The position numbers were made by a program, and so were the translations under genes. Under the pieces are notes generated by a model. It did no database searches, was not told where the DNA came from, and worked only from the letters and a program-made list of their open reading frames with translations. From positions 96,001 to 160,000 of IMG/VR virus record IMGVR_UViG_3300049893_001984: a stretch of DNA of 64,000 nucleotides; one strand, 5' to 3'. The stretch is from a virus. Positions within the stretch are counted from its first letter, which is position 1, and each line of letters begins with the position of its first letter. Below, piece after piece: positions 12,659 to 43,306 of this stretch.

Positions 12659-13333
12659 CTAAGCAGCCACCTTTAGGTCATTCTGGTGCTCAATGGCCAC
12701 TTTTACAATTTCCTCTTCCATCACCTTTAGCATCAACAACTGTGCGGCAAACACATCAAAGTTTGGCATGAAACCACCATTTACAAACTTAGGTGGGTGG
12801 GCGCACAGCCGTCTTACTGCCACAAGTTGCGGTACCCCTTCAGTAGATAACCTCTCCGCCATCTGGTAGACGTTGGCTATCGCTGTCGTGCATTTAATCC
12901 GGTAAATCTTTCCGGATGGGGCCCTAACTGTTACAAACTTAGTTCTTTCGAACTCCTCTCTCTGGTCTCGGGTTAACAAACCTAAGAACAGTTCTTTTGC
13001 TTTTTTATCTGCTGCTTCCGCAGATATCTTCTCTATGGCAGCTATCTTAGGGTCTACTACGACTGGTTTGTCCCACGCTGAAGACGTACAGGAGGTTGTT
13101 GCATAAACCGAGTGCCAGTACAAACCGTCCCTGCATTTAAGTTTAACCAATGTGGCGTCCGGGTAGTATAGCGTAGACGTACCTACTGTGCTGATTGAAT
13201 ACGTATCGCTATAATATGTTTCATACGTGTTAAACAGAGGCGTAGTGGCAGTGGTCGGTGCTACTTTTTCCTCTGGGGCAATTAACGTCGCTGAGTCTGT
13301 CAAGAGGGTTCGACCTGCAACCGCTAACTCCAT
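12659..13333 (-). CDS. Conserved hypothetical protein with LCAHP motif
   Basis: A.ELFLGLLT..Q...F, YRI, NV, LCAHP, D..AAQLLML pattern; coupled to the upstream GG-ending gene. Confidence 0.7.
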   Translation of the reverse strand: MELAVAGRTLLTDSATLIAPEEKVAPTTATTPLFNTYETYYSDTYSISTVGTSTLYYPDATLVKLKCRDGLYWHSVYATTSCTSSAWDKPVVVDPKIAAIEKISAEAADKKAKELFLGLLTRDQREEFERTKFVTVRAPSGKIYRIKCTTAIANVYQMAERLSTEGVPQLVAVRRLCAHPPKFVNGGFMPNFDVFAAQLLMLKVMEEEIVKVAIEHQNDLKVAA

Positions 13334-13334
13334 G

Positions 13335-13691
13335 CTATCCTCCTACTGGTGGTTTTGTGAAGATCAGAGTCTCAGCTCCTGGATCAAATGAATCGACACG
13401 CTCGCCTTGTTCCCCGTTCCTACCCACAGAAAATGCGATGTGGCCTTCGGCTAAAAGCTTGTTGAACAGGCTCCTTGCCTTTTCCACCGCTATCTCATCT
13501 CCGGAATCCCACACGTGGCGTGTGTCACCTGTGCGGTCCAACACCCTGAAAAGCCTTGACGTTGGTTTAGATAAAGCCTCGGCGAGAGCCTTTTCGGCCT
13601 CCGCCTCTTCTTCTACATTACCAGCTTCGTAATAAAACACTTTGTTAGTAACTAGATCCCGGTACATTGCCGGCTTGACACCTTCTTCCAT
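13335..13691 (-). CDS. Small protein with C-terminal PPVGG
   Basis: VLDRTGDT..W, FDP.AE, ends TKPPVGG; SD AGGAG. Confidence 0.7.
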   Translation of the reverse strand: MEEGVKPAMYRDLVTNKVFYYEAGNVEEEAEAEKALAEALSKPTSRLFRVLDRTGDTRHVWDSGDEIAVEKARSLFNKLLAEGHIAFSVGRNGEQGERVDSFDPGAETLIFTKPPVGG

Positions 13692-16094: not shown

Positions 16095-17582
16095 TTAGCT
16101 CCGGACTTCTTCGCCAGAGTAAGTCAAGGTTTCGCTCTTGTTGACAATTTCACCCTCGACGATGGGTCGGGGGCTTTCATTTGCTGACTTAAGGGCAGAC
16201 GATGCTTCGATGATGCCCTGTCCGACCATGTCGCCAATAGTGCGGCCGATCTGGTTTGCCACCATCGACCACACTATTTCGGGCGATTTTCTCAGGTTTG
16301 ATGGAGCCTGCCCGATCACTCCCTTGGCAGCGATCATAAGATCGTTCTCGTTCAAAGAGAGCTTGTCGCTCTCGTGCTTCATACGACGTATGGCCGAAAG
16401 CTTCGCACGCTCCACAACTTCGCGGATACGCGCTGGGATTGACTGTGCGCTGGTCAACAGCTTGGCCACGTTATCCAGCTGCACAGCGTTGTCGATCAGT
16501 CCACGCCCGTACTTTACCAGCAGGCGCTTTGTGGTTGCTTCGTTTGGAACGTCGAAATGGATGATGGCATCCATACGACCTTCACGAAGCATGGCCGGGT
16601 TGATGTTCTCAACGTGGTTCGTGGTCAGGATGGTCATAAGTTCGACCCCCTTGAGCTCGATACCGTCGATCGTGTTGAGTACGTCGTTCACGTCTCCGTC
16701 TCTGGTCGTACCCACGTACTGGTCGACGTCTTCGGCGAAGACAATCGAAGGGGCGTACTGCTTGGCGAACAGCAGTGCCTCAGCAAGGCCTGTCACCTTG
16801 CTCAAATAAATAAACGTCCACCCGTTTTCGGTGCCCACCTTGGCAACCACGGATCCAAGCAGCGTCTTGCCGGTTCCATACCGGCCAGAAGCAAGGACGC
16901 CTCTTTTCAGAGGAATCCCCAACTTCCGACACATATTGCTGCTGCGCAGGGGGGTCAGCACAGCCGAGTCAACAAGGTCCATCGTGTCCTTGTTCAGCAT
17001 GAGGTCCTCGGCCCGGATCTTCGTGGCGTCCACGAAGGAGGGGACTTCTTTCGTCGGATCAAATGAGTCTGGATCTGCCCCGTCGAAGTCCACCTTGATA
17101 GCCTTACCTTTGTAAAGAGACTCCTCCAAAAGGATCTTTCGGATGAGTGTGGAGATTTTCAGGACTTCGTCCTGGAACTTGCGCTGAACTTGGCCGCACA
17201 GTGAGAACACCCACCGGCCCTTGTCGAACACGGCCCCAGCGGAAAGCCAGCCGCCTTCGAACTTGGCCACCTCAAGCCGCCCCCACGGAACGGAGATAAC
17301 CTTGCCCAGGTGGTCCACTGGCACCTGGAGCATGTGCGGTGGGCGATTTCCGAAGAACGAGGGGGTAGGCACCATGTCCACCCAGCGGTAGATGGTGGAC
17401 AAGGCCTTATGGAGAGCGTATGCACCCTCAATGGGGAAGCACTCCATTTTCTCGTTTATGTCGATGATTCTGGCCTGATCCTCATCGTGCCGCTTGATAG
17501 CGCGTATAGCATCAGCCGAAGACATCCCTTCGGGAAGTATGATTTGATCCCCCTGACGCTTGACCTGGTGTTCGTCGGACAT
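16095..17582 (-). CDS. Classic-clade AAA+ ATPase (single AAA module)
   Basis: KRGVL, Walker A GRYGTGKT, Walker B IVFAEDVD, SRH TTNHVENINPAMLREGRMD. Confidence 0.9.
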   Translation of the reverse strand: MSDEHQVKRQGDQIILPEGMSSADAIRAIKRHDEDQARIIDINEKMECFPIEGAYALHKALSTIYRWVDMVPTPSFFGNRPPHMLQVPVDHLGKVISVPWGRLEVAKFEGGWLSAGAVFDKGRWVFSLCGQVQRKFQDEVLKISTLIRKILLEESLYKGKAIKVDFDGADPDSFDPTKEVPSFVDATKIRAEDLMLNKDTMDLVDSAVLTPLRSSNMCRKLGIPLKRGVLASGRYGTGKTLLGSVVAKVGTENGWTFIYLSKVTGLAEALLFAKQYAPSIVFAEDVDQYVGTTRDGDVNDVLNTIDGIELKGVELMTILTTNHVENINPAMLREGRMDAIIHFDVPNEATTKRLLVKYGRGLIDNAVQLDNVAKLLTSAQSIPARIREVVERAKLSAIRRMKHESDKLSLNENDLMIAAKGVIGQAPSNLRKSPEIVWSMVANQIGRTIGDMVGQGIIEASSALKSANESPRPIVEGEIVNKSETLTYSGEEVRS

Positions 17583-30028: not shown

Positions 30029-30500
30029 GCTGTGTTCCTTTCAAAGAATCCCAAGTTAGCTCATCCAAACATTCAAGCGCGTTGGACACTGCCTGCTTGT
30101 AGTCCCTAAAAGAGTCCTTTGACGGTAGGATCTCTGAACCGTGTCTAGCACACTCTCTGCGCAGTTGCTCAAGGTACGGGCCGCCACAGGGAACAACCTG
30201 AACATCTAACTCTGTGATATCCTGCGCCAGGTAATTCTTGATTACGGCGTAGGTGTACCCCTCCGGGTTGTACGGTAATGCACCCAGTTTGTCCGAGAGT
30301 CTTGTTTCACTCCTCACACCACAATGTTCAGTGACCCATAGTAGAGTCCTTTTTTCTATGTCGTACCTCAGATCAACAACCGGAAGCATTGCCATGGGCT
30401 CAAGAACCTCTCCGCTCTTAAACACGAGCCCATTTCTGAAGCAGACCAAGAACATTGCTATCCCCCTGTTTACAATCCGAAAGAAACCCCCGGACCACAA
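30021..30500 (-). CDS. Hypothetical protein
   Basis: True start likely MFLVC (about 30455), downstream of the terminator. Confidence 0.55.
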   Translation of the reverse strand: MWSGGFFRIVNRGIAMFLVCFRNGLVFKSGEVLEPMAMLPVVDLRYDIEKRTLLWVTEHCGVRSETRLSDKLGALPYNPEGYTYAVIKNYLAQDITELDVQVVPCGGPYLEQLRRECARHGSEILPSKDSFRDYKQAVSNALECLDELTWDSLKGTQHV

Positions 30501-30515
30501 TGGTCCGGGGGTTTT
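30484..30515 (-). terminator. Rho-independent terminator closing the Ubl cassette
   Basis: AAACCCCCGGACCA-CAA-TGGTCCGGGGGTTT 14-bp stem, 3 nt after the 30519 stop. Confidence 0.85.
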
Positions 30516-30518
30516 GCC

Positions 30519-31136
30519 TTATTTGGAAGGTACAACCGGCTTAATGTCTGGCGAGAACTTGCCAAATACGTGTTTTTCTATGTACGCAGAGAATAACTTT
30601 TCGATATTTAATTCATCACTATCATTTATCCAGCTGTTCGCTTTCGCGCGCCTACGAAAATCACGGACAAATGGCGCGCAGTTTGTATTACATATCCATA
30701 GCCCCCGTTCATCCCTGGCCAGCTTGCATAATCTGCAATTCTCATTCCTGGCGTTTTGCATAAGAGTTTTCAGGTTCTCAGGATTATATTTATTCCTATT
30801 TTTCGTAAACTCTGGAAAGCACTCAAGATAAAAACCAATAGCTATCTTTTGCAACCTTGGGCTGAGGCCAACGCGAGAAAACATCTGGTTGGAGACCAGC
30901 GTTATATCTGTGTCAAACCCACGAAAGTCAAAGAATTCTCTGAAGGACATGAGTTCTTTAACCAGACGTATCGTCACTTCTAAGAATTGAACCCGTGCCT
31001 CTTCGAAAGCCGTTGACACGGATTCTTCTGTAACCACATTTATTTCTGGGACATGTGGTATTTGAATATCTTTTGTGGGTCTTGGGGTTACCATAGAAGA
31101 TTCTACGCTAACCATGCACGCTTCAGTGTACCTCAT
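30519..31136 (-). CDS. Hypothetical protein with Cys cluster, last gene of Ubl cassette
   Basis: ATGA overlap with E1; CRLC...ICNTNC. Confidence 0.7.
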   Translation of the reverse strand: MRYTEACMVSVESSMVTPRPTKDIQIPHVPEINVVTEESVSTAFEEARVQFLEVTIRLVKELMSFREFFDFRGFDTDITLVSNQMFSRVGLSPRLQKIAIGFYLECFPEFTKNRNKYNPENLKTLMQNARNENCRLCKLARDERGLWICNTNCAPFVRDFRRRAKANSWINDSDELNIEKLFSAYIEKHVFGKFSPDIKPVVPSK

Positions 31137-31993
31137 TGGCTACTTTCCTTCTTCTTTGCCCGTTTCCTTGCTTTTCTTACTACGTGGGCGTGTTGAGGTA
31201 GCTTATCGGCGCTGCTGTCCGTAGCAGAACTTACATCGGGGATAGTAGGGATATGCAACGCAGAGACCGCTGTTTGATCCTCCGCGCCTTTAGGTTTATC
31301 AACGTCATACACAACGGCTTTTCCTACCTCGAGGTTAAAGAAAGCCTCCTGCGGTAGGTTTTCTTTGTCCTCCGTTACCCAAAGCCGGTGAAACAAGGAG
31401 AAGGCCATAGTAGCGGCCATGAGATTTGTTACCAGGAGCTGTGTAACACCCTGGTTTATCTCGTCCTCGCAGCCCTTTCCTGTGCGATCACCCTCAGTGG
31501 CCGTCAGTATCTCGGGATGGCGTTCGAGCACAGTCTGGGTCAAGTTTTTACCGTCAACCCGGATCTGAACACAAACGTCACCATCGATCAGCTCGTTGCC
31601 TGCTGAGATCATGATACCATTTTCAAGCTTGGACAAGGCCTGTGAAATGGTACGACGGGCCGGGTGGTTATCCACACAGGAGATAACCACGCAGTTCTCG
31701 GTGACGGCCCTTCGAACGCTGTCTTCAACCACCCACTCCGGGTAGGCGGTTATACGGAGGGAGGGATACTCCCCCGCCATATCGGTTACCAGGGCTTCGG
31801 CTTTGTTAACGCCAATGCTTGGAAACCGAAAGCGCTGACGGTTACGGTTTCCTTCTGTGTACACGTCCCGGTCCCACAGTGAGATCCGGCCTTGAAAGTC
31901 TTTGGCACACAGAAACTGGCAGAGCGGGGGGATGAGGTGTGACCCTATCCCCCCGCAGCCAACTATGACAACCTCGCTGACTTTAAACAGCAC
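31133..31993 (-). CDS. ThiF/E1-like ubiquitin-activating enzyme
   Basis: VGCGGIGS, DRDVY...NRNRQ, NKAEA, SCVDNHPAR, SAGNE, putative catalytic Cys in GKGCED, Q...N..AA. Confidence 0.93.
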   Translation of the reverse strand: MLFKVSEVVIVGCGGIGSHLIPPLCQFLCAKDFQGRISLWDRDVYTEGNRNRQRFRFPSIGVNKAEALVTDMAGEYPSLRITAYPEWVVEDSVRRAVTENCVVISCVDNHPARRTISQALSKLENGIMISAGNELIDGDVCVQIRVDGKNLTQTVLERHPEILTATEGDRTGKGCEDEINQGVTQLLVTNLMAATMAFSLFHRLWVTEDKENLPQEAFFNLEVGKAVVYDVDKPKGAEDQTAVSALHIPTIPDVSSATDSSADKLPQHAHVVRKARKRAKKKESSQ

Positions 31994-32025
31994 AGTACTG
32001 CCCTCGCTGTGGTTTTGTAATGCGG

Positions 32026-33192
32026 CTACTGATACGCCTCAGTAGACCTGTAGTCGTAATTTGTTAAGTCATTCGGGTCCAACTCCTGGTGCATAGACCC
32101 GCCGTTTCCTCCTTGTTCAAAACTGCTCTGGGGATTTGTGGCTTCCAACTGGGTCGATGGTGCAGCCGTGGGTGGTATCGTAGACTCCACCTCAGCTTTT
32201 ACTGCTGGAAGTATAGCGGTGCTGCTTTTTGCTTCTTTGTCCGCCAAGTCTGTTGTGGTGGTGGTGGGGGTAGTGGCGGTGGGGGTTTCTGTCTTTTCTA
32301 CGTGCGGTGCCTTTGGATCTAAGTCTATGCGCGACAAATAGTAGTCGTCGTCATCGCTCACATAGTAGGGATGTGTGTTGGGGGTGGATCTGGTCACCCT
32401 TTTTTCTTTGTAATACGCACTGTCCGCCCATTTACTCGCATGTGCGCTGTATCCAGAGTAGCTCGAGTAGCCCGAGTAGCTCGTGGGTTCAATCGTATGC
32501 TTAGCTACAAGGGCGTCCCATTTTGGGTCATGAAGAGCTCCGTATGCTCCTTCAACAACACCGGGCAATTCTGCGTCAAAGAATTTGCCGCCAAGTTGCC
32601 ACCGACAGCTGTAGCTGTGATTCAACTTGTCCAGGTTGCCCACAGTGATGTGCAGCCCGTCAAATTGCTTCTCGTCGTTGTCGTCCGTTCCTGAGTGGAA
32701 CGCATTCATTGACGCATGACTGTGAATGGTCCCAAACCGGAACCAGCCGTCTGGCGGATCCGCCAAGGTCGATATGTCGTACTTTGCAGAGGCTGCAGAT
32801 ACTGTCTGGACCGGTACCTGCGCATCCCATTGCTTACTCGTGGGATTATAGATCAACACAACAACGGCCTCTGACTTGTGATCGATGTACACCTTCTCGA
32901 AGAAGGACTCGATCTGGCGAAATAACTGTAACGGAAGTTTTACCACCTTGATTTCCACTGATTCAGCCAAGGTGGCCATCCCCGGAAGGGTGTCAACTTT
33001 CACCCTGACAGTGTAGAAGTCGTTGCTTATCTGTTTGAAGATCCCGTTACTCCCAATCAGATAGCAAAACTTGTCCTCCGGGTAAGTAACCGCTTGTACT
33101 TCGTCCTTTTCAGTGGAAACCGGTGGGTTGCCCACCATAGTTACCACCTTTGAGACCTTCTTTTCTATCAGATGTATTGGAAGCCTTGGCAC
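32026..33192 (-). CDS. Prokaryotic JAB/MPN+ metalloprotease (PRTRC protein A-like)
   Basis: YLIGSNG, SEAVV (Glu), VPVQTVS, GTIHSHASMNAFHSGTDD (HxH-x7-S-x2-D), GLHITVG; start reassigned to GTG 33192 behind AAAGGA. Confidence 0.92.
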   Translation of the reverse strand: MPRLPIHLIEKKVSKVVTMVGNPPVSTEKDEVQAVTYPEDKFCYLIGSNGIFKQISNDFYTVRVKVDTLPGMATLAESVEIKVVKLPLQLFRQIESFFEKVYIDHKSEAVVVLIYNPTSKQWDAQVPVQTVSAASAKYDISTLADPPDGWFRFGTIHSHASMNAFHSGTDDNDEKQFDGLHITVGNLDKLNHSYSCRWQLGGKFFDAELPGVVEGAYGALHDPKWDALVAKHTIEPTSYSGYSSYSGYSAHASKWADSAYYKEKRVTRSTPNTHPYYVSDDDDYYLSRIDLDPKAPHVEKTETPTATTPTTTTTDLADKEAKSSTAILPAVKAEVESTIPPTAAPSTQLEATNPQSSFEQGGNGGSMHQELDPNDLTNYDYRSTEAYQ

Positions 33193-33262
33193 AGGTCTAT
33201 TCCTTTCTTGTGCTAAGTGATTTTCGGTTAAACTCGCATTGTGCGAATTTAAATTGTTTGGA

Positions 33263-33793
33263 CTACTGCGGGTCTGCGCCGCTGACAGTGCCTGCAACTT
33301 CGGCTGTTGCTTCGGCTGTTGTTGCCGCTGTTTCTGTTGATGCTTGAACGGGTTCCGTGACAGACGGGGCAGATGCTGGGGTGATTGCTGGCAGCGTCTC
33401 AAGTTGTGCAAGTTTGAGTGCTTCAGCTTCAGTCTCCTGCCTTTCAAGTATCGCTCTCTGTTCATTCAATTCCCTCAGCAACTGGCTTCTTCTTGCAGAA
33501 GCCTGCCTTGCCTTCGTCTTGTCGTAGTGTTCTGTCCGTGACAAAATTCTTTGTAGCTGGGCATACGTTCCAGATTCGTCAATTTGTGACTCTTTTATGC
33601 AAAACCTCAACCTAATAGAATGTACTGCGTGTGCCACTAGGCTTTGCATTGGGGTGCCAACAAAGTTTTCCAAATCCTCGATTGGGCACACTAAAAAAGG
33701 ATGTAAAATATCCACGATGCTCAGTTTTTTCTGGGAAGGGATCGCGCTTAGTGAATTTTTGAGTTTTATAAATTCTTCTGACTCACGGGTCAT
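33263..33793 (-). CDS. Hypothetical coiled-coil protein inside Ubl cassette
   Basis: ATGA overlap with E2 stop (start MTRES); helical core plus A/T/E-rich tail. Confidence 0.7.
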   Translation of the reverse strand: MTRESEEFIKLKNSLSAIPSQKKLSIVDILHPFLVCPIEDLENFVGTPMQSLVAHAVHSIRLRFCIKESQIDESGTYAQLQRILSRTEHYDKTKARQASARRSQLLRELNEQRAILERQETEAEALKLAQLETLPAITPASAPSVTEPVQASTETAATTAEATAEVAGTVSGADPQ

Positions 33794-34512
33794 GAATTCT
33801 CCTCTCTGCCTAGTATGGCGCTGCAAAGACCGTCTAAGGTCTTTAGCTTGTGTCTCTTAAGTGATAACTTCTTGTAAAACTCCTTGTCGTTCTGGGTCTT
33901 GGCGTTCCAATCCTCTAGATTTAAGATGGCGCCACCGCTGTCTTCTTCGTACCGGACCTCCAGGTCGTCATTCCACGTTGAATTATAGATGAGCTCCTGC
34001 GCCAACGTGTTAATGCGAACAACGCGGGGAAGTGAGGCGTCGACTCCTACCTCGCCAGTGCAAAAGTGCCCGTGCCCTTGCTCATGTACATTGGGCAAGC
34101 ACAACGTATGGATCTGTGCACCAGTTCCCAGCAGGCACACATCATCCTTTACGCCTACTGCGTACACACTGGAGGGTATTTCTTCGGAGAAGTGAAAGAG
34201 CCAAAGTGTCCATCCGATGGACAGTTTGTAGTTGTATGACTTGTTCCGGTCCAGGCCAGGACCGCCACGTTTGTAATGCATACGTACAGGTAGTATCTGC
34301 GGCGGTTTCTGAATTACGTACAGCGATGATGGTCTACCTCCGCGCAGACCCGTCATGTACCGAACACAGTCCTTTGGCAAAGGTCCAGTGTCCGTACCGC
34401 GACCCTCTTGTGTTTGCTTCAAGTACTCCGTCAGGTTCACGTCGTGCATTATCATACGACGTATCTGGAGTACATGGTCACCGCGTATTTCAATCACATC
34501 CTCTTCTTCCAT
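33790..34512 (-). CDS. Prokaryotic E2-like conjugating enzyme (Prok-E2 family D / PRTRC protein B-like)
   Basis: GPLPKDC, LPNVHEQGHGHFCTG (catalytic Cys), STWNDDL, DWNAKT; SD GGAGG. Confidence 0.75.
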   Translation of the reverse strand: MEEEDVIEIRGDHVLQIRRMIMHDVNLTEYLKQTQEGRGTDTGPLPKDCVRYMTGLRGGRPSSLYVIQKPPQILPVRMHYKRGGPGLDRNKSYNYKLSIGWTLWLFHFSEEIPSSVYAVGVKDDVCLLGTGAQIHTLCLPNVHEQGHGHFCTGEVGVDASLPRVVRINTLAQELIYNSTWNDDLEVRYEEDSGGAILNLEDWNAKTQNDKEFYKKLSLKRHKLKTLDGLCSAILGREENS

Positions 34513-34529
34513 TACTGCGCCTCCTTTTT

Positions 34530-34571
34530 AAAAGAAAAAGCCGAGGAGCGCGGCAGGTGCGCTCCTCGGCT
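34530..34571 (-). terminator. Rho-independent terminator between Ubl and E2
   Basis: Perfect 13-bp stem AGCCGAGGAGCGC / GCGCTCCTCGGCT followed by TTTTCTTTT on minus strand. Confidence 0.85.
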
Positions 34572-34606
34572 GGTGTTTATGCTACGACAAACTGCTTACG
34601 TAACGG

Positions 34607-34831
34607 CTAGCAGCCCTTCTCGGACGCCATCTTCACGAACTCCAGGCGCTGACCGGCCTGGAGGCGGGTTTCGCCGCTGACGGGCATGCCGTCGATGCGG
34701 GCCTCGACGTTGCTCGGGAGGTTCAGAACATCCGTGTACTCATTCCGGATGTCGTTGACCGTGTGGCCAACGATGCTGTCGAGGGTCATCTGGTGCACAT
34801 TGAACTTCAGCATTGCGGTTTCGCCGTTCAT
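34607..34831 (-). CDS. Ubiquitin-like (beta-grasp) protein
   Basis: 74 aa; G.TV..IR...LN.P...IDG..V...L..G..LEFVK..SEKG-C; strong SD AAGGAG. Confidence 0.85.
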   Translation of the reverse strand: MNGETAMLKFNVHQMTLDSIVGHTVNDIRNEYTDVLNLPSNVEARIDGMPVSGETRLQAGQRLEFVKMASEKGC

Positions 34832-40333: not shown

Positions 40334-43306
40334 TTAGCTCTTTTTCCTATTCTCAGCACTATATCTCTCAACGAAGCGCTCAGCCACACCAGCTGCGCGT
40401 AATTCCTCGCTGCTCGCGTGCGTTCCCCACCTTGTACTAACATCAACATCGATGTCGAGGGTGAAGCCGCATGGCGAGTACCAGACTCCCGGTATGTCCC
40501 ATTCCGGGCAGACGGTAAGCTTTTTCATGCACAATGGGAGGACCTCGTCCACCATTGTAGCTATATGTTCAGAAGGCACTTCCAGCAAAAGTGCGTCATG
40601 CACTGCCAGAAGTATCTTGAACTTCACCGGCTTTGAAACTTCATAGTCCCGTCTATGCAATCGCATGACGGCCATGTTCAGCATGTCAGCAACAGTTGAC
40701 TGTATCGGGAAATTCACAAACTCCCGTTCCTGTGCTGCCAGTTTTGTCCTGTCTGTGTCTGTCGTGGCCCTCCTTCTTCTGCCCATGGGGTTCTCGATGT
40801 ACCCCGGATTGTGAACCATATTCTTACTCATTTTCACGTATCCGTCAACTTCAGTATACGTGGAGTAGTAGTTGTTAATCAGGGCCTGGGCCTGGTCCTG
40901 GGAACAGTCAATCTTACCCTTCGTTTCCTTCTTGATCTGACGGGCAACAGCTTTGGCTCCACGCTGGTAAGGAATGCCAAAGTTTATGGTTTTCGTAGCA
41001 ACTCGCTCCGCCTTGTACGTTTGCAACCAGTCATCAGGCGGAGGAAGGAAGCTGTCAAAGCCATCCCATTTTGGACACCCAAAGTAATTAACTGCTCCTC
41101 GTGCATGCAGGTCAGCCGCTGCGTCTCGTATGAGGTCAGGGCAGTTAGCAAGGTATCCCAGTGTAAAGATTTCTGCTGATTTAAAATCAGCTTCAATAAT
41201 GACATTCCCAGGTCCAGCAATGAAACACGAGCGTATCGTTTCGAACGATTCGCCCATTATTCTCTGCAACTCCTTGTCCTGCTTTTTAGGCAAATTCTGC
41301 AGGTTGGGGTTGCTTGACTTCCAACGCCCTGTCTCGCTCATCTGTGAAATGCTTGTACGTATACGCCCGTCAGGGTCGATCAGCCCCACTAGGCCATCTA
41401 CGTACTGCTCTTCACCATATTCGTCTACCGTTTCAGCAGACCTCAAAAACGTCTTCGTAATCTGATCAATCAGCTTGAAATCACGAAGCTTACTGACAAT
41501 GGGGTTGGTTGACTGTACAGCCAACTGCTCCAATGTCTCTGAGTCTGTTGAAGGAGACACGCCCAACCTATTCTGCGCTGGCAGCCTTACTATATCCTCC
41601 CACATACGAGCGGGCTTCTCGGTTGTCTTGTAGGGGACGAGGTTCAGGTTTCCCTTCTCAACCGGACCGTAAAGGAACTCTCTGAGCTGTATTACTGAAC
41701 GGGGGTTAAACTGTTCGTCCCCGTGCATTTCACGTATTTCCTTTAGCAGCTCACGCTTCTTGCCTTCATATATATGGACGAGCTCGATCATCTTCTCGCG
41801 GTCAACGAGGATGCCTGTATTTTCGATCTCATGTATTGCTGCTGTTACCGGTAAAACAATGTCTGTGAAACAGCGCAGAGGTCCTTCGTTGCCCTCTGAT
41901 ATGAGCTCTTTAACCATAGACTCTGATATTCTGAATGTTGCGTCAACGTCGCAAGCAGAGTAAGGAAGCAGGAGCTCGTCGGGAACATCTAAGTAGCCCC
42001 TTTCAGACAACTGCTTCTCATTTACTTTGTTATCCTTAAGCCACTTAGCCGTAGGGTAATCGTACCTGCCCATGTCGGTATGACGCAGCGTACACATTTC
42101 CAAACCATGCTCGGCATTCTCGTTTAGGATGTGGTCCGCGAGCATGGTGTCAAACACCATGTGTTTTACGACTGGGACGCCTAGGTCTTCTAGCCACAAG
42201 GCATCAGCACGAAGATTGTGTCCAATAACCCCCATTCCATCGGCAGTTACAAGTCTTCTCAACTCATCGATCATAAGAGAACGAGCTTGCAACGATTGGA
42301 GATCAACGCCACCTGCGCCACGTAGGCACATTACACAAGCACTCATCGGTTTCCAGCTGAACTGGATATAACGAAGAAGGCCTGACTTAGGTCTGCCACC
42401 CCACTCACAGTCAATGGATATGCGCCTGTACCCGGCTTCTAGTATTTCATTAACTGTGCTTGTCATCTCTTCCGGCGTGCTTATGTACCTGTAGTCGCGC
42501 TCTTCTACGGGCGTGTAAGGTCTGCCGGTTAGAACAATATTCTTAAACTGCTTGAGGTCAGAGACTATGCCATGTTTGGCCCCTGCCTCAGAAAGAAGTA
42601 CGCTTGGGTGGTTAGTTGCAAACACCCGTATCACATCTTCATCGCCGTCAAAGACCTCGATCGGAGGTAAGGCAGTGCCAAGGCTCCTGACATTCTTAAG
42701 CCCAAAAACCTTGCCCCTAACCTTTTCCAAGGTTGTCTGTTGCTCAAACACTGCCTTAACTGCTTCTGACCCCAGACACAATATGCACTTAGGCTTCGTG
42801 AGTGCTATCTCCTGGGCCAGAAAGGGGTAACTGTCTTTCTTCCACTGTGACTTTATGGTCTTACCACCGTCAGGTGGTGGAAACCGTAACGTGTTAACAC
42901 AATAGAATGAAGATAGCATTTCATGTTCAAAGCCAGCCTCCTGCAGCAGCGTTGAAAATATGCTACCGACCTTGCCCGACATGGTCCTGCCAAAATCGGT
43001 GTCGTCCTTGTTGGGCGCCTTACCGATTATCATGACAGGATATTCTACTATGGGCCCCCTAGGTGTTCTGCCGTCAAGGCAGCTAGAGGGCACAAAGTTG
43101 GCGTTATGGGAAACGCCCGTGCGCATGTCAGTAACCGCGATGACTGTTGGCTCGTAAAGCAGCCGCCTGGCCATCTCGTTACTTGTTATCCCCCATCTAG
43201 CGGCCTGCTCATCTACGCAGTCCGTGAATGGGAACTGGTCAAGTATCTCCGCCAGTTGCTTATCACTTGGCAACGGCGGGAGATAGGGCTGACCTAACGC
43301 TCTCAT
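40334..43306 (-). CDS. polA: Family A DNA polymerase with N-terminal family-4 UDG-like domain and 3'-5' exonuclease
   Basis: UDG-like GKAP, NHPS; exo IDCEW, GHNLRAD, YSACD; pol TGRWKSSNPNLQNLP, ADFKSAE, R..TKTINFGIPY, VHDAL. Confidence 0.95.
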   Translation of the reverse strand: MRALGQPYLPPLPSDKQLAEILDQFPFTDCVDEQAARWGITSNEMARRLLYEPTVIAVTDMRTGVSHNANFVPSSCLDGRTPRGPIVEYPVMIIGKAPNKDDTDFGRTMSGKVGSIFSTLLQEAGFEHEMLSSFYCVNTLRFPPPDGGKTIKSQWKKDSYPFLAQEIALTKPKCILCLGSEAVKAVFEQQTTLEKVRGKVFGLKNVRSLGTALPPIEVFDGDEDVIRVFATNHPSVLLSEAGAKHGIVSDLKQFKNIVLTGRPYTPVEERDYRYISTPEEMTSTVNEILEAGYRRISIDCEWGGRPKSGLLRYIQFSWKPMSACVMCLRGAGGVDLQSLQARSLMIDELRRLVTADGMGVIGHNLRADALWLEDLGVPVVKHMVFDTMLADHILNENAEHGLEMCTLRHTDMGRYDYPTAKWLKDNKVNEKQLSERGYLDVPDELLLPYSACDVDATFRISESMVKELISEGNEGPLRCFTDIVLPVTAAIHEIENTGILVDREKMIELVHIYEGKKRELLKEIREMHGDEQFNPRSVIQLREFLYGPVEKGNLNLVPYKTTEKPARMWEDIVRLPAQNRLGVSPSTDSETLEQLAVQSTNPIVSKLRDFKLIDQITKTFLRSAETVDEYGEEQYVDGLVGLIDPDGRIRTSISQMSETGRWKSSNPNLQNLPKKQDKELQRIMGESFETIRSCFIAGPGNVIIEADFKSAEIFTLGYLANCPDLIRDAAADLHARGAVNYFGCPKWDGFDSFLPPPDDWLQTYKAERVATKTINFGIPYQRGAKAVARQIKKETKGKIDCSQDQAQALINNYYSTYTEVDGYVKMSKNMVHNPGYIENPMGRRRRATTDTDRTKLAAQEREFVNFPIQSTVADMLNMAVMRLHRRDYEVSKPVKFKILLAVHDALLLEVPSEHIATMVDEVLPLCMKKLTVCPEWDIPGVWYSPCGFTLDIDVDVSTRWGTHASSEELRAAGVAERFVERYSAENRKKS

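Follow-up and report, generated by a model that had tools for sequence, protein, structure and literature searches.

The ParB-Related, ThiF-Related Cassette (PRTRC; TIGR03734-03742) belongs to the class of E1/E2/JAB/multi-Ubl operons, Ubl being a ubiquitin-like protein, that was described by Iyer, Burroughs and Aravind in 2006 (PMC1779556); the Pfam families of this class are Prok-E2_D, Prok_Ub and Prok-JAB. For the Bil systems, protein conjugation has been shown by experiment, and bacteria use Ubl systems to defend themselves against phages (PMC11601603). Here, a cassette with these components is described from a phage. It consists of six co-oriented, closely packed genes on the minus strand, located at 30519-34831 according to the open reading frame (ORF) list of a 64,000-nucleotide stretch (positions 96,001 to 160,000) of IMG/VR virus record IMGVR_UViG_3300049893_001984. 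This whole stretch is referred to as the window, and positions are those of the window unless a locus handle is given. A Ubl, an E2-like protein, a JAB peptidase and an E1 are encoded together with two accessory proteins, X and Y, in the order Ubl-E2-X-JAB-E1-Y. With a probability of roughly 0.7, we interpret the cassette as a functional Ubl protein-conjugation operon of a large phage and a diverged, ParB-less relative of PRTRC. In the searchable literature, no description of a phage-borne E1/E2/JAB/Ubl cassette was found. The features of the locus are the following:

34607..34831, minus strand: Ubl, 74-aa putative beta-grasp modifier precursor with the end Lys-Gly-Cys
34539..34571, minus strand: hairpin between Ubl and E2, 13 pairs, then TTTTTCTTTT (T run), resembling an intrinsic terminator or attenuator
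33790..34512, minus strand: E2-like carrier protein, 240 aa, candidate catalytic Cys151, Asn141 in an LPNV motif
33263..33793, minus strand: X, 176 aa, ATG at 33793 overlapping the E2 stop (ATGA)
32026..33138, minus strand: JAB/JAMM metallopeptidase, PRTRC_A-related, likely 370 aa with start at Met110
31133..31993, minus strand: E1, ThiF-family adenylating enzyme, 286 aa, GTG start, candidate catalytic Cys174
30519..31136, minus strand: Y, 205 aa, ATG overlapping the E1 stop (ATGA), four-Cys cluster C-x2-C-x12-C-x3-C
30483..30515, strand unassigned: strong closing hairpin after Y, 15 pairs, ending the operon

A first-pass annotation of this DNA had named the Ubl, E2, JAB and E1 genes. All four lie where it had placed them and carry the motifs it had listed, and each identity withstood testing by profiles, alignments and homologs. 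The genes are co-oriented and partly coupled through ATGA overlaps, as it had claimed, the overlaps being seen at E2/X and at E1/Y. Its single terminator has to be replaced by two hairpins, one after Ubl (34539-34571) and one after Y (30483-30515). Two start codons are also revised, that of X to the ATG at 33793 and that of JAB most likely to Met110.

The C-terminus of the Ubl is EFVKMASEKGC (LEFVKMASEKGC). A Lys-Gly pair is found at the domain end of 70/70 distinct homologous Ubls; 42 of them stop at KG, 18 end in KGC like the window protein, and 10 have other short tails. Where Ubl domains occur in tandem, the junction follows directly after KG. Because of these two regularities, Lys-Gly is the predicted mature C-terminus, and the terminal Cys is best read as a common one-residue cap; eukaryotic polyubiquitin precursors likewise bear an extra residue at their end. 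The proposal of the first-pass annotation that the JAB removes the Cys to expose the Gly is thereby strongly supported on comparative grounds (KG in 70/70 Ubls, KGC in 18, and the poly-Ubl junctions), and the JAB would be the obvious enzyme for this processing.

The fold of the Ubl was approached through its relatives and through models. Ubls of related loci match the window protein by plain BLASTP (33-41% identity, E values down to 7e-16), and the tri-domain Ubl homolog of survey locus L015 passes Pfam ThiS (8e-10). An ESM Atlas model of the Ubl has a TM score of 0.86 to ThiS-family clusters, and the top 50/50 neighbours in VIA are beta-grasp proteins; our own AlphaFold2 (AF2) model reached a predicted local distance difference test (pLDDT) score of only 64.7. 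The question of whether the Ubl is a beta-grasp protein is thus answered positively, and a beta-grasp fold with a conserved KG terminus is assigned with moderate confidence. A word-indexed homolog search with the Ubl returned only the Ubl itself, and neither Pfam Prok_Ub nor Pfam ThiS had a match in the window's genome. A Gly-Gly-tailed protein at ∼12.6 kb (within 12659-13691) was considered as a further Ubl and rejected as a member of a different family, and the study's four profiles found no second Ubl, E2, JAB or E1 anywhere in the window.

The Ubl gene differs from the other cassette genes in its expression signals. It has its own ribosome-binding site (RBS), AAAGGAG, and is followed by the 13-pair hairpin and T run shortly before the RBS of E2 (AAGGAGG). 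Its G+C content at third codon positions (GC3) is 0.88; the five other genes of the cassette lie at 0.44-0.60, and PolA has 0.55. The high GC3, the separate RBS and the attenuator hairpin together indicate that the operon is built for an excess of Ubl. GC3 is also raised (0.69) in a distant AAA ATPase gene (16095-17582), which suggests that the two genes belong to a class of highly expressed genes.

The E2 contains LPNVHEQGHGHFCTG. An exhaustive HMMER search with this protein recovered 80 relatives, which share 24-39% identity with it. When 56 of these were aligned, P46, N141, C151, G153 and N181 proved invariant, and 29/56 match Prok-E2_D (PF14460). An AF2 model built on the 56-relative alignment is confident (pLDDT 93.3), and its structural neighbours are UEV/E2/RWD proteins, including Cap2, CdnG-E2 and BubCD-BubB. 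N141 and C151 are spaced by ten residues; E2 enzymes have the signature HPN...C with the same Asn-Cys spacing. The E2 is accordingly viewed, on moderate fold evidence, as a probable divergent UBC-fold relative of Prok-E2_D/PRTRC_B with Cys151 as the candidate catalytic residue. A word-indexed homolog search returned only the E2 itself, and tblastn of the E2 against phages gave 0 matches.

In the JAB, an upstream Glu is followed by HSH-x7-S-x2-D, and none of the residues E90, H139, S140, H141, S149 and D152 varies among 5 phage and 30 metagenomic homologs. By its motif, the protein qualifies as a predicted JAMM/MPN+ peptidase. It scores 6e-4 (20.1 bits; curated cutoff, 25) against Prok-JAB (PF14464) and 7e-14 (51.8 bits; curated cutoff, 101.8) against PRTRC_A, its best NCBIfam match. 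More than 648 relatives were found, and many of those at ∼50% identity carry PF14464 or the JGI name "PRTRC genetic system protein A." The ORF is 479 aa long and open up to 33465. Because it overlaps X by 67 codons and homologs begin near Met110, the product most likely starts at Met110 (33138) and has 370 aa.

The E1 matches Pfam ThiF (PF00899) at 2e-20 (73.4 bits; cutoff, 28.1), and its best NCBIfam match is PRTRC_ThiF (6e-21, 74.8 bits; curated cutoff, 144.75). Its nearest solved relatives are ThiF and MoeB, and its GCGGIG, GNRNRQ and CVDN motifs align to the ATP, Arg-finger and Mg residues of Escherichia coli ThiF (1ZUD). In PADLOC, it is distantly similar to CBASS Cap2 E1 modules. Cys174, located in GKGCEDE, aligns to an S-C-A-E/D motif present in every phage E1 that is linked to an E2 and a JAB, and is the candidate thioester-forming catalytic Cys. 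A short ThiF-like protein of 207 aa is encoded just upstream of a tRNA gene array in Rctr197k (KX853510, L005:6001-6624). It is truncated, without the conserved Cys and with neither an E2 nor a JAB gene beside it, and may represent a different, nonconjugating use of ThiF in a large phage.

Neither X nor Y matches any family in Pfam, PHROGs, NCBIfam or PADLOC. A profile was built from 11 X-slot proteins (Planctomycetota loci and L013) with the window left out; its sole match among the 263 window ORFs is X (E value of 1.6e-7), and the match spans nearly the whole profile. X is therefore regarded, by this profile, as a conserved fifth component of the Planctomycetota/L013 sublineage. The X slot is filled in all window-type loci except that of Bacillus phage WH1. 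The X-slot ORFs of L014, L015, L016 and L051 were examined as X homologs and have no detectable relation to window X, and iterative searches found no X or Y homologs among the 84 survey loci described below. For Y, no homolog was found in 114 related loci. A Cys-rich family of 249-289 aa lies 3′ of E1 in related loci; Y was compared to it and is unrelated, though Y also has a four-Cys cluster and, through its ATGA overlap, is translationally coupled to E1.

To place the cassette in a larger set, loci were retrieved from IMG/VR with a JAB alignment (A3), yielding 80 loci on contigs of 17-277 kb, which with four GenBank phage loci make 84. Iterative searches seeded with the window proteins found a Ubl in 79, an E2 in 74 and an E1 in all 84 of them, counts that are conditional on JAB presence because the loci were chosen by JAB similarity. 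The first-pass annotation had raised the possibility that homologous cassettes lack E2 or JAB and sit with sulfur-transfer genes; an E2 is present in 74/84 of these JAB-chosen loci, and no desulfurase lies near the window cassette.

Two architectures are seen in the survey. The window type, Ubl-E2-(X slot)-JAB-E1, occurs in six loci, five of them metagenomic (on 175-185 kb contigs) and the sixth in the 230-kb Bacillus phage WH1. The majority type occurs in at least 59 IMG/VR loci (within L017-L092; contigs of 24-277 kb) and comprises, in order, an ∼850-aa protein with an N-terminal Prok-E2_D-like domain, a JAB, an ∼227-aa E1, a fusion of a Rho_N/SAP-like motif to a Ubl, and an ∼300-aa second ThiF-like protein; Pfam checks on L021 (3410-9648) confirm these assignments. 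Two peptide patterns alone gave 99 IMG/VR matches, and the ESM Atlas clusters of the cassette family are 56-100% viral. Such cassettes are common in phage metagenomes and are present, unannotated, in cultured jumbo phages. The window cassette is thus not a one-off.

The E2-JAB-E1 triad was found in three cultured phages and in one faecal phage contig, with the E2 confirmed by a hidden Markov model from alignment A1. The cultured phages are the following:

Bacillus phage vB_BceM_WH1 (LC597490): E2-JAB-E1 triad, gp214-216
Salmonella phage Arash (OQ632216): E2-JAB-E1 triad, gp248c-246c
Vibrio phage D69 (OZ195729): E2-JAB-E1 triad, genes 0304, 0303 and 0301

Bacillus phages Edson and KLEB27-3 and Vibrio phages D181 and D148 have a JAB match only. 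In WH1, gp211 (L003:1146-2045) lies three genes upstream of the triad and consists of five tandem 57-aa repeats, each ending ...IEFKVQAGTKG/A, where the slash marks the domain end. It passes PRTRC_C (73.6 bits; cutoff, 45.95), and although it is labelled "virion structural protein," its repeats identify it as a predicted polyubiquitin-like precursor of the Prok_Ub/PRTRC_C type. An NADAR-family gene lies 3′ of E1 in WH1. In Arash and D69, no Ubl was recognizable in the loci or by whole-genome Prok_Ub/ThiS profile searches; small ORFs just upstream of E2 in both phages were considered and are not recognizable as Ubls. The modifier of Arash and D69 might have diverged beyond recognition, be encoded at another site or come from the host.

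When prokaryotes were scanned with one genome for each species, the closest relatives of the JAB were found in metagenome-assembled genomes (MAGs) of Planctomycetota, at 44-54% identity. These loci have the window-type order Ubl-E2-X slot-JAB-E1, and their Ubl tail is ...VEFVKVAGEKG/A. They also provide the best direct BLASTP matches of the four core proteins: E1 at 45-47% identity, JAB at 44-50%, Ubl at 33-41% and E2 at 27-29%. Judging from these sequence matches, the host may belong to Planctomycetota, or genes may have been exchanged with that phylum. Several of the MAGs (L093-L104) hold two to four cassette copies each, mostly on short contigs, and one copy is located inside a 3.26-Mb contig (L100:2546-11988). 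At the flanks of that copy lie a PD-(D/E)XK nuclease and a WGR-DNA ligase, and its downstream side also has genes for a Cys-rich 289-aa protein, a DUF6744-like protein and a classic AAA ATPase. The MAG copies may be prophages, islands or misbinned phage DNA. The window AAA ATPase (16095-17582) was assessed as an ortholog of the AAA ATPase beside the Planctomycetota cassette; the two share a generic core only (27% identity over 149 aa), and for this reason, no link is drawn between the stand-alone window ATPase and the Ubl operon.

The record that carries the cassette is a virus genome of 192,334 bp with a CheckV completeness of 92%. The cassette sits in the replication arm, among replication rather than structural genes; its neighbourhood includes genes for PolA, a DnaB-like helicase, a primase, a UvsX-like recombinase, an SbcC-like ATPase, a class II ribonucleotide reductase and a thymidylate synthase, and the large terminase gene lies at the end of the window. 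The first-pass description of a phage genome with terminase, polymerase and primase is borne out by PolA, the primase, the DnaB-like helicase and the large terminase. Its remark that no ParB partner was visible extends to the entire 192-kb genome, in which the ParB_N profile has 0 matches at an E value of ≤0.01. A blastn search of the cassette against INPHARED phages gave 0 matches. The family A DNA polymerase (990 aa; 40334-43306) has a uracil-DNA glycosylase superfamily domain N-terminal to its 3′-5′ exonuclease and polymerase domains.

What the sequences establish is the identity of the five conserved proteins with their intact catalytic residues, the layout of the operon and the strict co-occurrence of the parts in phages. 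From there, a working sequence of events can be proposed for the cassette, in which we infer the chemistry of each step, the transfer order and the target. The Ubl would be produced in excess, given its strong RBS, GC3-rich codons and the attenuating hairpin ahead of the enzyme genes. The JAMM peptidase would cut off the one-residue Cys cap, exposing Lys72-Gly73; the ThiF-type E1 would use ATP to adenylate Gly73 and take over the Ubl as a thioester on Cys174; and Cys151 of E2 would then receive the Ubl and pass it to lysines on target proteins. The same JAB might reverse the modification. X and Y might each serve as an adaptor, an E3-like specificity factor or a substrate. There are weak hints that the field of the cassette could be DNA-associated processes in early or middle infection, namely, its position in the replication arm, the fusion of a Rho_N/SAP-like motif to the Ubl in the majority architecture and the link of PRTRC to ParB.

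Several observations weigh against a functional conjugation operon. Direct profile matches were absent for the E2 in Pfam, PHROGs, NCBIfam and PADLOC and for the Ubl in Pfam and NCBIfam, and Foldseek of the E2 model against the PDB returned nothing at an E value of ≤0.001. The co-occurrence counts carry the conditioning on JAB described above. The modifier has one terminal Gly in place of Gly-Gly, and no recognizable E3 was found. In 42/70 Ubls, no trimming is required; therefore, the main job of the JAB may be deconjugation or poly-Ubl cleavage. Finally, no biochemical or genetic functional study of the cassette family or of PRTRC was found in the searchable literature.

The first two alternatives keep the same chemistry and concern what it would be for. 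Counter-defence, in which the phage tags host immunity proteins or the JAB strips the Ubl marks of host Bil or type II CBASS systems, is possible, and we hold it to be unlikely. Bacterial Ubl systems do act in phage defence (PMC11601603), and the distant likeness of the E1 to Cap2 E1 modules, the placement of the cassette in the early/middle replication arm and the fast-evolving or lineage-specific X and Y, as an arms race would predict, are all in keeping with such a role. However, no likeness to known anti-defence proteins was found, a bare deconjugase would need no E1, E2 or Ubl of its own, and the closest relatives reside in bacterial MAG loci and not in phages only.

Those same MAG loci are a reason to consider, as a slightly less probable alternative, that the cassette is a phage-carried defence or exclusion module that tags the structural proteins of rival phages in the manner of Bil or that it was recently gained from a Planctomycetota host. 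The four core proteins match best to Planctomycetota loci of identical order, one of which is embedded in the 3.26-Mb contig, and Bil operons with the same Ubl-E2-JAB-E1 order tag phage tail proteins (PMC11601603). Against this reading, the PADLOC defence models have no match beyond the generic E1. A recent capture is difficult to reconcile with the viral abundance of the family (99 IMG/VR matches from two peptide patterns; ESM Atlas clusters that are 56-100% viral), and several of the MAG contigs may themselves be misbinned phage or prophage DNA.

A role in the virion or its assembly, with the Ubl or poly-Ubl incorporated into the particle or attached to its proteins, or with the enzymes packaged and entering the cell together with the DNA, appears more doubtful still. 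The poly-Ubl gp211 of WH1 is labelled, on an uncertain basis, as a virion structural protein, a Ubl-JAB pair serves in tail assembly in lambda and T1 (PMC1779556), and Gp246-249 of Arash, which include the E2, JAB and E1 products, were detected by liquid chromatography-mass spectrometry in purified particles (PMC10585845). The Arash preparation, however, held 116 proteins, including ribonucleotide reductases and ligases (PMC10585845). Because so many enzymes were found among them, detection is taken as a sign of expression and does not imply specific packaging. The window operon, moreover, lies among replication and not structural genes.

A ThiS/MoaD-type sulfur carrier, activated by the E1 for cofactor, tRNA or DNA thiolation with no protein tagging, would account for ThiS and MoaD as the closest structural and profile neighbours of the Ubl and for the ThiF and MoeB kinship of the E1 but is very improbable, because 74-84 of the 84 loci have an invariant-Cys E2 and a JAMM peptidase as obligate partners, poly-Ubl precursors exist, the Ubl ends in a single KG rather than GG, and Pfam and NCBIfam scans found neither a rhodanese domain in the E1 nor desulfurase or sulfur-acceptor genes nearby.

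Recent work on type II CBASS, Bil and Bub has established bacterial Ubl conjugation as a weapon against phages. On the phage side, the window holds a complete, intact kit of the chemistry that bacteria use against phages. If the interpretation as a conjugation operon is correct, it would amount to ubiquitination run by prokaryotic viruses themselves, a system new to experiment. Conjugation of proteins by the cassette would constitute a new layer of phage-host biology, posttranslational tagging by the virus, and would provide the first functional handle on the long-predicted PRTRC/Prok-E2_D operon class. Given the Lys-Gly terminus, trypsin is predicted to leave a single Gly (+57 Da) on target lysines, a simple signature for mass spectrometry. 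Direct testing is feasible because cultured phages carry the E2-JAB-E1 triad and WH1 also carries the poly-Ubl. More broadly, we see an even chance that tailed phages of ∼25 to >270 kb, including culturable Bacillus, Salmonella and Vibrio jumbo phages, run their own Ubl conjugation during infection, using at least two architectures, a Lys-Gly modifier and lineage-specific factors such as X, and thereby rewire host or phage proteins.

Among the known systems, the only phage Ubl-JAB pairing described earlier is that of the TAPI Ubl and the TAPK JAB-NlpC protein of lambda and T1 (PMC1779556). Unlike the window cassette, that pair has no E1 or E2, lies in the tail module and serves assembly by processing, not conjugation. 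Type II CBASS Cap2/Cap3 and Bub ("6E") share with the cassette a ThiF-type E1, a UBC-fold E2 and a JAMM peptidase. In those systems, however, E1 and E2 or Ubl and E2 are fused, whereas the window parts are all separate proteins; CBASS has no free Ubl, the CD-NTase being conjugated, and Bub has an additional DUF6527 serine protease. In Bil (BilA-D, types I and II), Ubl, E2, JAB/JAMM and E1 are likewise encoded by separate genes whose order matches, and the Ubl precursor is trimmed by the JAB. Bil differs in that its Ubls usually have two beta-grasp domains and in that Bil is a host defence, whereas the window cassette is phage borne. As to Bil family membership, PADLOC gave CBASS-type E1 matches only, and no Bil chain was among the PDB sequence matches; dedicated Bil profiles were not used.

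The likeness to PRTRC noted in the first-pass annotation was recovered in all four core proteins, directly for two and via relatives for the others. The best NCBIfam matches of the window JAB and E1 are PRTRC_A and PRTRC_ThiF, and relatives connect the E2 to PRTRC_B/Prok-E2_D and the Ubl to PRTRC_C/Prok_Ub, the latter through the WH1 homolog. The window E2 and Ubl themselves have no PRTRC_B or PRTRC_C match, and the L014 E2 homolog scores 1.5e-7 against PRTRC_B, below the cutoff. PRTRC and the phage cassette family both include mono- and poly-Ubl precursors, and both are carried on mobile DNA; the PRTRC carrier is a plasmid or an integrative and conjugative element, whereas the window carrier is a 192-kb lytic-type phage. 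The window cassette further differs from PRTRC in its conserved X and orphan Y, its order Ubl-E2-X-JAB-E1 and its lack of ParB and of PRTRC_D/E/F, for which X, Y and the flanking ORFs gave no match at an E value of ≤1, and every direct score is below the curated cutoff. Because the scores fall below the cutoffs and ParB (in the entire genome) and PRTRC_D/E/F are absent, the window cassette is best classified not as a PRTRC member but as a diverged, ParB-less relative of PRTRC.

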